DNA of 36,538 nt, taken from positions 1-36,538 of IMG/VR virus record IMGVR_UViG_2654587996_000001. One strand, 5' to 3'. This document shows positions 1 through 36,538 of this stretch, piece after piece. Source of the stretch: a virus. Lineage: Duplodnaviria; Heunggongvirae; Uroviricota; Caudoviricetes. The notes below the pieces were generated by a model that worked only from the letters and a program-made list of their open reading frames with translations, was not told the DNA's origin and ran no database searches. The first letter of the stretch is position 1. The number at the start of each line of letters is the position of its first letter. The translations under genes were made by a program, and so were the position numbers.

Positions 1-735
1 TCAACTCTCTTTCAAACCGGTTTTAACTGTCTGTGGTTTTGGGTAAGGCTGGACTTTGAATAGCTTTGTGTTGAGGCGTTTTCTGGCTCTCTTGTTCAGA
101 AACCGGATGTAACGAAACTGGCGGAATTTATGAACACTGGCTCTGTCGATATTAGCCCTCAGATGTTCACCTCGCTGTCCTCCTCGTTTGATGGTATTCC
201 TGCAAATCTCGTGATACCACTCGCCATCAAGTTCATAGAATGTTGATTCATGGCTGCCAACATAATCAAAATTGCTTGCCTGATACACGACACCAAGACA
301 GCCACAACGCTCATCTGCAAACGACTGAACCCACTGCACCTGCGGATAAAGTTGCCTGATGAGTTTGAGTGCGTAACTGATTGCCCTTGATTCGGAGTTT
401 CTCGGCATACAGTCATGCATCCATAGCCGGTTAAGCTCCATGTATTCACGGTTCTGCGTACCCGTTACGATGCGCGCTCCGCTGTTTGGATTAAGGGCAT
501 AACCCCATTGCATTACGCCAACCAGCTCCCGTTCTGAAAATATCCCCAGATGAAGGTAGGAGTTATTTACGAAACGGTGGCTGTAATGTTTATTGACGAT
601 GACCAGTCGGGCCAGCCAACAACTTATTGTCTCAACACGCAATTCACGGGAGCCATAACCAACGATATTGTCGTTATAGCGAATAAGTTCAGGCGTGCTG
701 ATGATACGGGATGTAACTTGCTTTTTGTTCCCCAC
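1..735 (-). CDS. mom: Mom-like DNA modification protein; proposed GTG start at 735 (244 aa); the frame stays open upstream to 1086
   Basis: Lies immediately downstream of and overlapping a Com-like zinc finger gene, as in Mu. GTG at 735-733 is preceded by AAGGAAA about 9 nt upstream. No ATG exists in this frame between 895 and 513. Stop TGA at 1-3. Assignment is by position, not by recognised Mom sequence. Confidence 0.5.
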
Positions 736-889
736 GACAGGATTTCCTTGTGTATGTGGGGTGCTCTGTGGCGCTCTGTGATGTGATTTGATTGAGGGTT
801 TTACAGCGCGGGCATTTGACTTCCAGATAGCTGAAACTGGCCCGTGCCAGTAGCTTATTGCAGTGTCGGCACCGTATGTTTCGATACAT
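689..889 (-). CDS. com: Com-like zinc-finger translational activator of mom
   Basis: Translation [14 protein letters not shown]...VKCPRCK has the C-x2-C...C-x2-C arrangement and CPRCK motif recalled from phage Mu Com; about 66 aa; 3' end overlaps the proposed mom start. Confidence 0.7.
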
Positions 890-938
890 GGCCGCATAAC
901 CTCCTGCTTTGTTGTTGTTGTTGATGTTTGCTTCATCA

Positions 939-963
939 AATCGATCGACAAAAACGATCGATT
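939..963. promoter_or_regulatory. Perfect 9-bp inverted repeat AATCGATCG-N7-CGATCGATT carrying two GATC sites, upstream of com-mom; a third GATC at 1026-1029
   Basis: Read directly from the sequence. Sits 50-140 bp upstream of the com start on the minus strand. In Mu the mom promoter is controlled by Dam methylation of clustered upstream GATC sites. Confidence 0.5.
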
Positions 964-1103
964 CGATTTGTTTAATTGATACAACAAATAACACGAAATG
1001 TCATTAGCGAAAATTTTATGAGGTTGATCACTAATTTTAAAAGGTGCAGTAACGCATAAGTGATGAATGATTGTACATTTGAACACCGCAAAGCAAACAA
1101 CTC

Positions 1104-2223: not shown

Positions 2224-4302
2224 TTATCCTGCTGACGGGGTATTCACTTCCACCACAATGCTGTCAATCAGCACCGGATATGTCGCAGCGCTGGTGATAT
2301 CAGTCACCCGTAATTTGTCTGCCGTAAACGTGCCAACCGGAGACTGAGACAGCATGAATGGTGTCCCGTCCTTACCATCAATGACCGGCGTCACCTCAAT
2401 ACTGTTGTTACCGGCAAAACGGAAGCCCAGCGTATGCCATTCGTTATTAAATGCACCGAATGACCCCAGTTTCGTGTTTTGCGCCGTATTGCCCTTGTGG
2501 TACATCACGTTAAGGTCTGTGGCATCGCTCTGAACGTAAAACGATGCCAGCAGGTTATGACCGGCATTACCTTCCAGAGTAACCCCTTGCGGCAGGGCAG
2601 AAACCGGCCAGTACAGCGCCATCGCGTACTGATTAGCCGTAAGCGTACCATCAACCTTAAACCGGCAACTGACAAGGCCACCTTTACCCAGCAGGTCCGC
2701 ACCATTACCGGCATCATGCTCAAGGTACCAGGAGGATTTGCCTGTTTCCTTGGTCAGTTTCATGGCCTTACCACTACCTGCTCCGGCATCATCCACGATT
2801 TCAGCCTTGCCACCTCCCGCGCTCCAGCCCTGTGGTGACAGCTGACCTTCTGATTCAGATGTCCGGTAAGCAAACAGCGTGCTCATCGTCGTGGTGTCAG
2901 CCGGTGGAGTGGACGGTGTATCCGGCGATGGTGTTGATGGGGAGTCAGGTGATGGCTTCTCATCCGGTGGTGTCACGGTCTGCCCGCCCATCAGTTCAGC
3001 CGTGCGCCCTGCATGGAGCAGAATAGCGGAGGCCAGACGGTCTGAAATAATGCCCCTGCGTGCCCATGAGCTGAAATGGCTGTCACGCTGTGTCGAGACA
3101 AAACTGCCCTGAGTACGGGATGCTGCACCATAATACCCGACAGCCACAATATCCGGGTCTTCCGCCGGAGCATTTGTTGGCGTGTTTGCGCCGTTTTCAT
3201 CTGTCAGGAACGGTACAAAGAAAATATTCTGTGCTTCCTTGCCTTTGTAGCCACCGTATACTGTCTCATATTTATCGGTGCCAGCGTTTTTCCAGTAATA
3301 CGTGGTATCACCGCAAATCCACGGCACCGTGGTGGCATTTCCGCTCACACACTGTGCAGCAAGTGAGGACAGGTCAGTCCTGAACTGCTGAACCATGGCC
3401 GTGAATAAACCGTTATGCTGCTGACTGCCTGAAGCAAGGTCTGCCTCGCCCTGCATCCATACCACCGCCAGCAGCCTGTTTTTCGGGTTCTTCGCCAGCG
3501 CCGCTTTTGTCCGGCTGACCATGTCCTGATACAGGGGTTTACCGGCACCCCAGCGTGCAGCGTCAGCGGATGCGCCACTGGCCTCACTGAATGTACCGTC
3601 GGCACCGGTGGTGAATGCAGAACCACCACGACAGCAGGGCACCAGAAGTATCCCTGCATTCTGCGGGATATACGACAGCAGCTTTTTGGCAATATGCAGC
3701 CCCTGACTGACACAGCCATACTGCCCCTTATTCAGGTCCGCTTTCGGATGATTAACACCGCTCATATCCTGTACATCATGCAGACAATGGTCAGCCGGAA
3801 TCACATCATTGTATGCACAGGCGTCTCCACCCGGCGTCACTGTACTGCGGCGTGCCAGCTGTTTAATGCGCGGGTCCGGGCGGTCATAAGAGTCCGGTAA
3901 CGGAAGCCCCTCACCGTAGGCCATGCCGTTGGACTGTCCGGCAAGCACAACCACGTAGTAATACTCCGGCTCTCTGTTGCCGCCACTCACACTGCCGGAA
4001 GACCCGGCGTTATCCGGTGCATTCCAGTCCGATGGGGTGAGCGTTCCGGCCACATCCGACGTAATGGGAATGACGCCGGTCACGCCAGAGCTGGTAATTT
4101 CTGCACTGGGGGTACCGGACACAGGCATTACCCATAATGGCTCTTTCGTGCTGAAGCGGATCACACAATCTGCAAAGGTGATCCCGCCTTTATTACCCGA
4201 AGGCCGGAAAGGGCTTTCAATAAATGCCACAGTGCCACCGGCAACCTTGACTGAAAACTCTCCGGGCATGGCGGAGAGCATTTTCCACTGGGAGTCTGAC
4301 AT
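2224..4302 (-). CDS. SGNH/SASA-family esterase domain protein with Pro/Ser/Thr linker and C-terminal beta-rich domain; candidate virion-associated receptor-modifying enzyme
   Basis: Motif VVVLAGQSNGMAYG (GQSN nucleophile block of sialate O-acetylesterase-like SGNH hydrolases); linker PPDEKPSPDSPSTPSPDTPSTPPADTTT; no N-terminal signal peptide; located just past the tail fiber genes. Confidence 0.7.
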   Translation of the reverse strand: MSDSQWKMLSAMPGEFSVKVAGGTVAFIESPFRPSGNKGGITFADCVIRFSTKEPLWVMPVSGTPSAEITSSGVTGVIPITSDVAGTLTPSDWNAPDNAGSSGSVSGGNREPEYYYVVVLAGQSNGMAYGEGLPLPDSYDRPDPRIKQLARRSTVTPGGDACAYNDVIPADHCLHDVQDMSGVNHPKADLNKGQYGCVSQGLHIAKKLLSYIPQNAGILLVPCCRGGSAFTTGADGTFSEASGASADAARWGAGKPLYQDMVSRTKAALAKNPKNRLLAVVWMQGEADLASGSQQHNGLFTAMVQQFRTDLSSLAAQCVSGNATTVPWICGDTTYYWKNAGTDKYETVYGGYKGKEAQNIFFVPFLTDENGANTPTNAPAEDPDIVAVGYYGAASRTQGSFVSTQRDSHFSSWARRGIISDRLASAILLHAGRTAELMGGQTVTPPDEKPSPDSPSTPSPDTPSTPPADTTTMSTLFAYRTSESEGQLSPQGWSAGGGKAEIVDDAGAGSGKAMKLTKETGKSSWYLEHDAGNGADLLGKGGLVSCRFKVDGTLTANQYAMALYWPVSALPQGVTLEGNAGHNLLASFYVQSDATDLNVMYHKGNTAQNTKLGSFGAFNNEWHTLGFRFAGNNSIEVTPVIDGKDGTPFMLSQSPVGTFTADKLRVTDITSAATYPVLIDSIVVEVNTPSAG

Positions 4303-4555: not shown

Positions 4556-5128
4556 ATGGCGATAGTATTATTCCTGTTTTTATCATTGATTCACATGGTG
4601 ATGTTTATGCAACTGATTAATGTTAAACGATATTACCCGGAACACAAACCCTATGGTAATGATGTACAGTATTTTCAGAGTGAAGATGGTAAGGATTTCT
4701 ACGAGTCCCTGCCATTATTCACAAAAAAATATAAACTTTGCATAACACCAGACAGCGGCGTTATCTGCTCAATATCACAGGACGCCTCGGCACTGTATCC
4801 TGCGGGTTTTTCCGTGGTTGAGGCCGATGAACTCCCTGAAGGCACGGATATTTCAGGAAACTGGACGTTTGATAATGGCGTTATCTCCCGGCTTCCGGTT
4901 AACTACACCAAAAAAGCGGAAGCACAGCGCCAGTCATATCTTAATCAGGCATATGAAAAAATTAATGACTGGAGAACTGAGCTACAACTGGGCACGATCA
5001 GTGATGAAGACAGAGCAGCACTTACCCAATGGATGGCATACATCAGTCAGGTGAAGAAAATGGAACTACCCGCCATTAAAACAGAAGCTGAATTTAACGC
5101 CATTAAATGGCCTGAGCTGCCACAGTAA
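4556..5128 (+). CDS. Tail fiber assembly (chaperone) protein; real start probably internal, around 4595-4607
   Basis: C-terminal region DWRTELQLGTISDEDRAALTQWMAYISQVKKM resembles conserved Tfa/U-family C-termini. On the opposite strand from all other structural genes. Confidence 0.65.
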   Translation: MAIVLFLFLSLIHMVMFMQLINVKRYYPEHKPYGNDVQYFQSEDGKDFYESLPLFTKKYKLCITPDSGVICSISQDASALYPAGFSVVEADELPEGTDISGNWTFDNGVISRLPVNYTKKAEAQRQSYLNQAYEKINDWRTELQLGTISDEDRAALTQWMAYISQVKKMELPAIKTEAEFNAIKWPELPQ

Positions 5129-34217: not shown

Positions 34218-36305
34218 TCAGGCCAGCGGATCATTTTCTTTTAATTTCGCTTCCAGCAGCTGCAATCCCCGCTGGAAGTTACGCTCGTATTCGTCATCAG
34301 GTTCATCATCAACGGCAGGTCTCTGAACGGCCACCGTATTACCTACCGGGCGGTATATGTTTTCCAGCCATGGCTCCTGTGGCTTGTGCTCCAGCACGTT
34401 GACAACCTCATCCTCGGCATCACGGATTTTTTCCTCTGCGCGTTTACGCATACCTTTAAGGCGCTGCTGCTGTTTGTAGTATTCCGCGCTGACCGGGAAG
34501 GCTTCGCGTTTATTGCCGTCCCATACCGCCTCGCAAATCACACTGCCATCCAGGCGACGCACGGTAATTCGCTCAGCATCATGAATGTCATAGCTGATAA
34601 GCACCTTACGACCATGCTCGTCACGCAGCTCGGGCGCGTAGTAAATATTATTCAGCCAGCGTATTTCACAGCGTCTTACAGGGCGCTCCACCATCGGCCG
34701 GAACATATCCCGCAGCTCAACATCGGACAGCCATTCAATTTCCGTGTCCTCTTCCGCCAGGCGTTTTTTTCTGAACTCCGCCGGGCTGTAATGTTTACCG
34801 TTCGGCTTCATGGGTAATTCATCGTGCGGCCGGTTGTTGTACCACTCAACGCCGTCACGAATGGCATCAATCAGTTCAGACCAGGACGGTAAATCACGCA
34901 TCGCTGACTGCTGCCGGGCGTTCAGCCGCTTGCCCTGTTGCAGGGCACTGAATGCCGAGCGTAAATCGCGGTTGGTTTTACGTAACGTCTCGCGATCTGC
35001 ACCTTTCCCGAAATAGGTGCGGTATTTACGGGCTATGCGCATCGGTAATGTGCGGTTAAGCCGTTCGATAATGCCCCGTCCCTGCGGGTTACCGGCAATC
35101 CCGGTCGGGTGATTAATCCCCAGTCGCGGCAGTATCCCCACAATCTCCTTATCCAGGACGTCGGCGGTTTCCCCCGAGCCATTATCCGAGTAATACAGAA
35201 ACGGTTTGCCGTGATGTCGAATACCGTGCTGTATGGCACCGGCTACGGCGAAAACATTTTCAGCCAGGTCAAGGCTCCAGCCCACCACAAAGCGCGTGCC
35301 GCCGTCGATAACAAAGGTCACTTCCGGTGCAAATGGCCGCCCGTGAACCGGGTGTGCGCATTTCAGCTTCATGCCGTGACCGTCACCAATCCAGACATAA
35401 TTCACCGGCATTTTTGACCAGTCGCGGCGAGTGAACCCCTCAAGCTGGCGGTATTCACTGCCGGTAACCCGGCCTTTTTGTTTCACCACTTCCGGCAGTT
35501 TCTTCATTGCGCGGCGAATGGTGTCATAAGAGGGCATGATATCGAGCATATAAGGCTCATCAGCGTGCCGGTGCTGCCATTCAGCGACAAAATCCTCGTA
35601 AGCCTCGGTCATTGGTCGGCCGTTTGACTGGCGATACTGCGCCAGAAACTCGGGCAGCCAGTTAATATCTTCGGCTTTTATTTCCTGACGTTTACCCGGT
35701 GCCAGTAAAAGCAGGCGTTCAGCGGCGTTCTGCGCCTTGTTAAAGGCCGCAATCCAGCGTTTCAGCGTGATTTCACTCAACGCGCGGCTGTTTCCCTTTT
35801 TGGCGTTCGCCGTCTCAACCATTGCCACAATGCGCTCGTCCAGTTGTGATCGTGCCAGGCTGTTAACGAGGAACCGGATAGCCTTAGCGCAACTAAAGCC
35901 GGGTTGTTGCGCGATTTTCAGCGCCTCGCTGACGATCGCTATTCGTGCCTCTGCCACTTTACGTTGGTTTTCAGTCAGGGCATTGAGGCGTTCGACCATC
36001 AGTTGGGGTGATCCGCGATATGCCTCCACCGCATCAACCACGGCAGGTGAGCGTCTGGCCTTTGTCACCACCGGAGCCGGTGATTCATCGGCTTTTTGCG
36101 TCATCAGTTGCAGGGCGTAGCGTTCACGTAATGCCTGCTGCGTCACTTCAGGTAAACAGTCGATGCTGTATTCAAAACCTTTAGTGCCTTCCTGGCGGCG
36201 TCTGCTGGTTTCGCTGGTTGCATACTTCCTGATTGAATAGCGGACGCCTTGCTCCGTTCCCGGCATTCCCGGTAATCCAACCAGCTCTTTAACTGAAGCA
36301 AACAT
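34218..36305 (-). CDS. A: DDE transposase MuA-like
   Basis: 695 aa; catalytic-core region WIGDGHGMKL...SDNGSGE; position between ner and B. Confidence 0.85.
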   Translation of the reverse strand: MFASVKELVGLPGMPGTEQGVRYSIRKYATSETSRRRQEGTKGFEYSIDCLPEVTQQALRERYALQLMTQKADESPAPVVTKARRSPAVVDAVEAYRGSPQLMVERLNALTENQRKVAEARIAIVSEALKIAQQPGFSCAKAIRFLVNSLARSQLDERIVAMVETANAKKGNSRALSEITLKRWIAAFNKAQNAAERLLLLAPGKRQEIKAEDINWLPEFLAQYRQSNGRPMTEAYEDFVAEWQHRHADEPYMLDIMPSYDTIRRAMKKLPEVVKQKGRVTGSEYRQLEGFTRRDWSKMPVNYVWIGDGHGMKLKCAHPVHGRPFAPEVTFVIDGGTRFVVGWSLDLAENVFAVAGAIQHGIRHHGKPFLYYSDNGSGETADVLDKEIVGILPRLGINHPTGIAGNPQGRGIIERLNRTLPMRIARKYRTYFGKGADRETLRKTNRDLRSAFSALQQGKRLNARQQSAMRDLPSWSELIDAIRDGVEWYNNRPHDELPMKPNGKHYSPAEFRKKRLAEEDTEIEWLSDVELRDMFRPMVERPVRRCEIRWLNNIYYAPELRDEHGRKVLISYDIHDAERITVRRLDGSVICEAVWDGNKREAFPVSAEYYKQQQRLKGMRKRAEEKIRDAEDEVVNVLEHKPQEPWLENIYRPVGNTVAVQRPAVDDEPDDEYERNFQRGLQLLEAKLKENDPLA

Positions 36306-36307
36306 AA

Positions 36308-36538
36308 TTACGCGACCTTACGAATGTAGCGGCTGGGCCAAATCTCCTCGGGTGGCACACCCAGGCATTCCGCAATAATCCCCTCATACTTGGGAACATG
36401 ACGGTATACCGCGTTGTACAGGTTGTTCTGACCTACACCAGCTTTACGTGCCAGCGCCCTCATACTTCCTTCTCTGGCTCTGACTTCCCCCAAGATTCTT
36501 TGAGGATGCCAATCAGGCTTAACTTCATTTCTCGCCAT
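36308..36538 (-). CDS. ner: Ner-like DNA-binding regulator (76 aa), complete; its ATG is the last codon of the window
   Basis: Sequence ends ...AECLGVPPEEIWPSRYIRK, resembling the Ner/Nlp family C-terminus (IWPSRY); 2-nt gap to the transposase start. Confidence 0.75.
   Translation of the reverse strand: MARNEVKPDWHPQRILGEVRAREGSMRALARKAGVGQNNLYNAVYRHVPKYEGIIAECLGVPPEEIWPSRYIRKVA

Follow-up and report, generated by a model that had tools for sequence, protein, structure and literature searches.

The com-mom operon of a Mu-like prophage, with mom predicted to start at a GTG inside com and in a predicted hairpin adjoining a putative Com target

Mom, the DNA modification enzyme of phage Mu, converts adenine in DNA to N6-carbamoylmethyl-adenine in a reaction that uses Gly-tRNA, and the product of the accompanying com gene is, according to the experimental literature, an RNA-binding translational activator. 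In Mu mRNA, the GUG start codon of mom is held in the stem of a hairpin and Com recognises the sequence CC(N)2-3GAG just 5′ of this hairpin; the bipartite Com motif derived by SELEX is GAG-NN-CC-N3-GAG-NN-CC (PMC6483171). The zinc-binding cysteines of Mu Com are C6, C9, C26 and C29 (PMC3299994), and R111 and S124, in the numbering of the 241-aa form of the Mu protein, are the catalytic residues of Mom (PMC13219725). Related arrangements have been documented in several other genomes: SP18 is a Mu-like phage that encodes Mom and regulators of Mom, a Com homologue is followed by a methyltransferase in FluMu (HI1522.1/HI1523), Pnm1 (NMA1821) and phage B3 (ORF47/48), and putative Com sites are present at the 5′-end of hin1523 (PMC3299994).

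The DNA analysed here (the window, 36,538 nt in total) contains a Mu-like prophage in reversed orientation, with a Ner-like gene at 36538 followed by genes for the MuA transposase, GemA, a Mor/C-family activator (27957-27535) and lysozyme, and with mom at position 1. Positions 1-905 of the minus strand are a com-mom operon at the right end of this prophage. The window starts with the final base of the mom stop codon (1-3) and ends with the first base of the Ner-like gene (36536-36538), and attL, attR and the repressor gene therefore lie outside the window. In one related locus, L166, mom is followed by ~130 nt and then by host-like sequence. Matches to the com-mom region, with 90-99% identity, are present in 232 of 5,426 complete E. 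coli genomes, where both com and mom are annotated by PGAP; in phages Mu, D108 and SfMu, the alignment to this part of the window is confined to the mom coding region, with ~71% identity.

Divergent from com there is a plus-strand ORF (1153-1455) of 100 aa for which no Pfam match was found. A hypothetical protein is encoded at the same place in the E. coli relatives, and the counterpart is frameshifted or partial in some of these (L004, L005). The place of the Mu tail-fibre/G-segment region is occupied by a minus-strand gene (2224-4302) that encodes a protein of 692 aa in which a SASA carbohydrate-esterase domain is combined with DUF6645 at the C-terminus, and a tail-fibre assembly gene is located at 4556-5128 on the strand opposite to the SASA protein gene. 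Unlike in Mu, a gin-like invertase gene was not found adjoining com in the window. The features of the com-mom region, with positions given in the numbering of the window, are as follows.

689-889, minus strand: com, from ATG 889-887 to TGA 691-689, 201 nt, encoding a 66-aa zinc ribbon
900-905, minus strand: AGGAGG, the ribosome-binding site (RBS) of com, 10 nt before ATG 889
935-967, no strand assigned: inverted repeat TCGATCG-N7-CGATCGA containing GATC twice, at 943-946 and 956-959, and located 45-75 nt upstream of com
1-735, minus strand: mom, from GTG 735-733 to TGA 3-1, 244 aa, matching PF25680 and PDB 8bv8
733-735, minus strand: predicted mom start codon GTG, the sole in-frame ATG, GTG or TTG between 897 and 642
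743-749, minus strand: AAGGAAA, the mom RBS, in the hairpin loop, 7 nt upstream of the GTG (9 nt from the AAGGA core)
730-761, minus strand: predicted translation-inhibition hairpin, in which CCCCAC (761-756) pairs with GUGGGG (735-730) around a 20-nt loop with an inner helix
760-776, minus strand: predicted Com-binding site GAGCGCCACAGAGCACC, which abuts the 5′-arm of the hairpin and matches the SELEX motif
736-1101, minus strand: stop-free stretch in the mom frame, apparently not coding in that frame as judged by stops in relatives and by the pattern of variable sites

A preliminary description of this DNA had recognised a Com-like zinc finger and a mom gene, and database searches bear out both assignments. 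The com product matches Pfam PF10122 (Zn_ribbon_Com) with 48.2 bits (cut-off, 22.9; E = 7.5e-13), and its cysteines C7, C10, C26 and C29 conform to a four-cysteine CxxC...CxxC zinc-binding pattern. The same 201-nt gene is annotated by PGAP in the E. coli relatives, and 25 IMG/VR loci carry a Com that is identical, or 94-98% identical, to the window Com. In more distant relatives, com is preceded by AGGAGG-N9-ATG or by GAGGTG-N7-ATG. The window Com is the predicted translational activator of mom, by analogy with Mu. The PGAP label of the protein in L003-L005 is 'Com family DNA-binding transcriptional regulator', a name that conflicts with the experimental literature on Com.

Similarity to the Mom family is likewise evident. 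Residues 31-233 of the 244-aa product match Pfam PF25680 with 257.6 bits over the entire profile (positions 1-202 of 202), and when the search is made with the 361-aa ORF that contains mom, the match (256 bits) starts at residue 148, the equivalent of residue 31 in the shorter product. Residues 4-232 of the Mu Mom crystal chain 8bv8_A (232 aa) align to residues 122-350 of this ORF (E = 2.7e-123), and R111 and S124 are conserved in the alignment, with NRLW and NSESRAIS in the window corresponding to NRMW and NSE(S/A)RAIS in Mu. The window Mom is predicted from this similarity to be a GNAT-fold, tRNA(Gly)-dependent adenine modification enzyme. The exact sequence of the 244-aa product has already been called from this GTG in NCBI GCA_013053665.1, and the Mom proteins of close relatives are 95-98% identical. 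Their names vary in RefSeq, from 'protein mom' and 'hypothetical protein' to 'Mom family adenine methylcarbamoylation protein' and 'tRNA(Gly)-dependent adenine aminoacyltransferase Mom'.

Behind an intact com, the modification gene is truncated by premature stops in L049, L065 and L074, where it encodes a methylase, and in L077, where it encodes Mom, and this suggests that the modification gene decays in some prophages. Given these truncations in relatives, the window module might also be a decaying remnant that is no longer expressed. This is improbable, as both reading frames are intact in the window, the catalytic residues of Mom and the four cysteines of Com are present, the mom leader is identical to the leaders of many relatives and the window has the full Mu-like gene set, from the Ner-like protein through MuA, GemA and the Mor/C-family activator to lysozyme.

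The frame that contains mom is closed at its upstream end by TGA 1104-1102, is stop-free from 1101 to 4 and ends at TGA 3-1; the ORF listed in this frame has 361 aa and begins at GTG 1086. ATG codons are present in the frame only at 936, 897 and 513, in agreement with the earlier report of a 361-codon open frame with no ATG between 895 and 513. As also proposed there, GTG 735, with AAGGAAA at 749-743, opens a 244-aa frame that overlaps the 3′-end of com; the overlap is 47 nt and, relative to com, mom is read in the +1 frame. The 8bv8_A alignment begins at ORF residue 122, four codons after GTG 735, and so places the N-terminus of Mom at residue 118, that is at GTG 735, the position to which it had provisionally been assigned.

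Comparison with relatives leads to the same codon. In 16 of the 25 close IMG/VR relatives, and in E. coli L004 and L005, the TCA at 819-817 of the window is replaced by TAA, a change that is synonymous in com (GTC to GTA), and GTG 735 is therefore the first possible canonical mom start in these relatives. When variable sites are counted in the window plus 17 distinct close relatives, 10 of the 12 in the region 889-736 are at position 3 of com codons, which is position 2 in the mom frame, and of the 89 in the region 688-4, 67 are at position 3 of mom codons, a pattern that places a change in the frame under selective constraint near 735. Divergent Mom genes on viral contigs start 6-12 residues before a conserved S-R motif, whichever start codon they use, and PGAP has assigned the same GTG start, with the same 47-nt overlap, in the E. 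coli relatives. GTG 735 is also positionally homologous to the Mu GUG start. Five independent lines of evidence, namely the structure alignment, the divergent Mom genes, the stops in close relatives, the change of frame under constraint and the different genes behind the same leader (see below), place the predicted start of Mom at GTG 735; actual initiation at this codon would then occur as in Mu.

Neither of the other N-termini considered in the preliminary description, at 897 and at 513, fits the comparisons. A start at ATG 897 would result in a 298-aa, N-terminally extended Mom made without any need for Com, and there are several features that make this codon attractive: it is in the mom frame with AGGAGG directly upstream, no stop interrupts that frame before mom in the window or the L006 group, and the codon does not vary within the close clade. 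ATG 897 is, however, separated from AGGAGG by 2 nt, as compared with 10 nt for the com ATG, which is similar to the 9 nt in relatives, and a 2-nt spacing is too short for efficient initiation. A TAA located 26 codons after ATG 897 separates it from mom in 16 of the 25 close relatives and in L002, L004 and L005, the ATG is absent from more distant relatives, and the extension that would be added to Mom has no homologue and no Pfam match. The substitutions in 889-736 also argue against this start, as they fall on position 2 in the mom frame and would always be nonsynonymous there. We consider a start at ATG 897 very unlikely. As an observation in its own right, ATG 895-897 is out of the com frame, is positioned 8 nt before the com ATG and opens a mere 26-codon ORF in most relatives.

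The open frame comprises 366 codons, the first 122 of which (1101-736) cross the promoter region and then com in a frame that is not translated; the segment 1101-890 belongs to the intergenic region that separates com from the divergent plus-strand ORF at 1153-1455. With window codon usage, the +1 frame over the com-only part is stop-free in 7% of synonymous recodings of Com, and dinucleotide shuffling of the 212 nt upstream leaves a given frame without stops in 2.8% of cases; multiplied together, the two values give a joint chance probability of ~0.002 for the long open frame. Its earlier characterisation as unusual is therefore justified statistically but not biologically, as the frame is polymorphic among relatives and varies as expected for the third positions of com codons. 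Counted from the com end, the open frame begins at -413 nt in the window, at -242 nt in the L006 group and at -185, -128, -62 or -53 nt elsewhere. On these comparisons, the long upstream open frame is a non-conserved accident without biological content. The low chance probability of such a stop-free run, and the position of mom in the +1 frame relative to com, could be taken as signs that the region 1101-736 is functional, either as an overlapping gene or through a programmed +1 frameshift that would fuse the Com zinc finger to Mom. We regard this as highly improbable: the point at which the frame opens differs among relatives and is not conserved, the variable sites reveal no constraint in the upstream mom frame, 1101 to 890 falls in the divergent promoter region and the upstream frame has no Pfam match. 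Least credible of all is a start at ATG 513, the first ATG downstream of com, as this codon has no RBS upstream and the resulting 170-aa product would lose 74 residues, 44 of them in the Pfam domain (PF25680 positions 1-44), together with a region near-identical to the Mu structure, when Mom that lacks 20 N-terminal residues already has reduced activity and W48 is required for dimerisation (PMC13219725).

With GTG 735 as the start codon, translation of mom would begin within a structured leader. The GTG is located in the 3′-arm of the predicted hairpin, AAGGAAA is in the loop, and the predicted inner helix includes pairing of GG 747-746 with CC 741-740. Folding of 763-728 gives a minimum energy of -12.6 kcal/mol (z = -2.26), with 8 of 200 shuffled sequences folding as well, and the same procedure gives -9.5 kcal/mol (z = -2.19) for the Mu hairpin. 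The z-score of the window hairpin is modest, and the signal is limited to the 36-nt hairpin, as a wider fold of 101 nt around the start has a z-score of only -0.9. The helix is paired in all 16 distinct homologous leaders, with five of the six pairs invariant and one compensatory change, C-G to U-A, in the Mu lineage. Since pairing is almost wholly invariant, a covariation test adds little independent support, and as the arms also encode conserved Com residues (EHPT and RG), their conservation is not cleanly attributable to RNA structure.

The SELEX-derived Com motif has one match in the 36.5 kb of the window, at 776-760, where 0.06 would be expected. The CC(N)2-3GAG element, CCACAGAG, is at 771-764 within this bipartite match and immediately 5′ of the hairpin, and the predicted site aligns with the Mu Com target GCCUGCGAGCAU. 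A composite pattern that combines the motif with the hairpin arms has exactly one occurrence in each of 142 of the 167 sequences searched (1.26 Mb, with both strands counted), and is positioned at the junction of com and the modification gene, or cargo, in the window and in 135 anchored loci. The stem within the Com target could have 2-3 bp in the window, as compared with 4 bp in Mu, and the third pair is unpaired in 13 of the 16 sequences. An Rfam search with E values up to 1 identified no family that covers the leader, and its sole match, to a plant microRNA, is meaningless. The resemblance to Mu that was noted at the outset thus extends to the leader, with the GTG in a predicted hairpin beside a Com motif, and the fold near the GTG, in the form of hairpin 761-730, does pair the region of the start codon and part of the RBS.

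These features can be accommodated in a model in which a single transcript would carry com and mom. In the free mRNA, hairpin 761-730 would hold GTG 735 and part of AAGGAAA, and mom would be translationally silent as a consequence. Com, once made, would bind to the CC-N3-GAG motif at 776-760 just 5′ of the hairpin and open it, exposing the mom start site as described for Mu, and translation of mom would then proceed in the +1 frame from GTG 735, located in the 3′-part of com, to produce the 244-aa enzyme. Com binding, hairpin melting and the dependence of mom on Com are transferred to this model from Mu. We have considerable confidence in the model as a whole, with mom expressed from one transcript and from GTG 735, silenced by hairpin 761-730 and activated by Com at 776-760.

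An additional level of control is probably provided by the GATC palindrome at 935-967, which is invariant in five relatives and conserved in most Com-anchored loci. It resembles the GATC cluster upstream of Mu com, but is much nearer to com, and is probably a Dam-sensitive transcriptional control region. Control of mom transcription in Mu involves Dam and OxyR as well as activator C, and the window has a Mor/C-family gene, at 27957-27535. Promoter and terminator scans of 1-1500 with consensus patterns returned four weak sigma-70-like matches, with 2.6 expected, none of them usable, and no promoter or activator site could be assigned. As Pmom of Mu is activator-dependent, this result says little.

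The leader is not confined to mom. In 80 Com-anchored viral loci, the cargo is Mom in 28, an N6_N4 methylase in 35, a C5 methylase in 9, a D12 Dam-type methylase in 3 and some other protein in 5. The same com gene, hairpin and GTG-GGG leader precede a C5 cytosine methylase (PF00145) or an N6_N4 methylase (PF01555), whereas the D12 Dam-type methylase (PF02086) genes have an ATG start and a different stem, one that would sequester the RBS through CUUACCUG/CAGGUAAG. Non-Mom cargo is present in L002 (3065-4316), L031-L033, L035, L036, L038-L041, L042-L076 and L078-L080; in L002, a Mu-like phage inserted in a Stx2c phage, com and the leader are followed by such a gene. M.EcoGIX was initially a candidate for a Com-associated prophage methylase and was dropped, as it is plasmid-borne according to the literature.

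The leader is nearly identical in the Mom, C5 and N6_N4 groups, and their products all begin with MGN or MGI, which means that the DNA they have in common stops a few codons past GTG-GGG. An end to the shared sequence at this point makes sense only if the GTG is the start codon. On balance, we favour the view that the ~50-nt leader, composed of the Com target, the hairpin and GUG-GGG, is a portable translational lock that recombines with unrelated modification genes just 3′ of the start. If so, the window would carry one of the alleles of a cargo-swapping system, and its long open frame would be irrelevant. Replacement of mom by methylases behind Com has already been published, and the cassette junction and the range of cargo are mildly new; there may be no earlier description of the exact junction, of C5 and N6_N4 cargos in Mu-like phages of enterobacteria or of the lack of an Rfam model. 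The Com-responsive leader is sharply conserved and easily searched for, and could be used to flag tightly controlled, and probably toxic, modification genes in Mu-like phages.

The closest well-studied counterpart is the com-mom operon of Mu itself (NC_000929; com, 35768-35956, with mom ending at 36602), in which the genes have the same order and are likewise at the right end of a transposable phage. In both, mom is read in the +1 frame with respect to com and starts before com ends, by 47 nt in the window and by 50 nt in Mu, and a CCCAC/GUGGG hairpin has the GUG start in its 3′-arm and the RBS in its loop, with a CC-N3-GAG Com target directly 5′ of it. The leaders are closely similar, GCC-ACA-GAGCA-CCCCAC...GUGGGG-AA in the window and GCC-UGC-GAGCA-UCCCAC...GUGGG-AA in Mu or, more fully, GCCACAGAGCACCCCAC-loop-GUGGGGAA and GCCUGCGAGCAUCCCAC-loop-GUGGGAA, respectively. 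The mom DNA is ~71% identical to that of Mu and the alignment of the protein with the Mu structure extends from end to end, whereas com and its upstream region have no alignment to Mu DNA; within the first 1,500 bases of the window, the mom coding region alone could be aligned. The hairpin loop has 20 nt with an inner helix in the window and 11 nt in Mu, the outer stem has 6 bp in the window and 5-6 bp in Mu, and the Com-target stem is the weaker in the window. The window Mom has two additional N-terminal and 11 additional C-terminal residues relative to the 231-aa GUG form of Mu Mom. The two GATC sites of the window are palindromic and close to com, whereas Mu has three that are further upstream, and the place upstream of com that is occupied by gin in Mu has the divergent 100-aa ORF in the window.

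The comparison also bears on the annotation of Mu. In RefSeq, Mu mom starts at ATG 35877 and encodes 241 aa (L001, 1108-1140), and the GUG located ten codons downstream gives the 231-aa form. The reference annotation is thus inconsistent, with RefSeq using the upstream ATG and both the literature and the crystallised construct the GUG. The RefSeq ATG is located within the stem of the Com target, and neither the window nor any of the relatives examined has an equivalent codon. Of the two forms of Mu Mom, the comparison supports that of 231 aa, from the GUG, rather than that of 241 aa, from the ATG. With regard to the native Mu start, PMC7261163 reports only the mass of recombinant Mom. For the window, Mom should be annotated as 244 aa from GTG 735, rather than as the 361-aa longest ORF.

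The most similar modules are those of the Sp18-type Mu-like prophages of E. coli (L003-L005; WP_000528246.1, WP_032204524.1), with 92-95% DNA identity. Their leader is identical to that of the window, and the start assigned by PGAP is the same GTG, with a 47-nt overlap. Their Mom has 245 aa, one codon longer than in the window, the TCA at 819-817 of the window is TAA in L004 and L005, and the window sequence is expanded by 6 nt, CAACAA, upstream of the com RBS. The order of Com and a modification gene is shared with FluMu, Pnm1 and B3, in which the cargo is a methyltransferase instead of the Mom of the window. The system described here is therefore one that is already known, the Mu com-mom operon in its Sp18-type enterobacterial variant, for which the public annotation is already correct.
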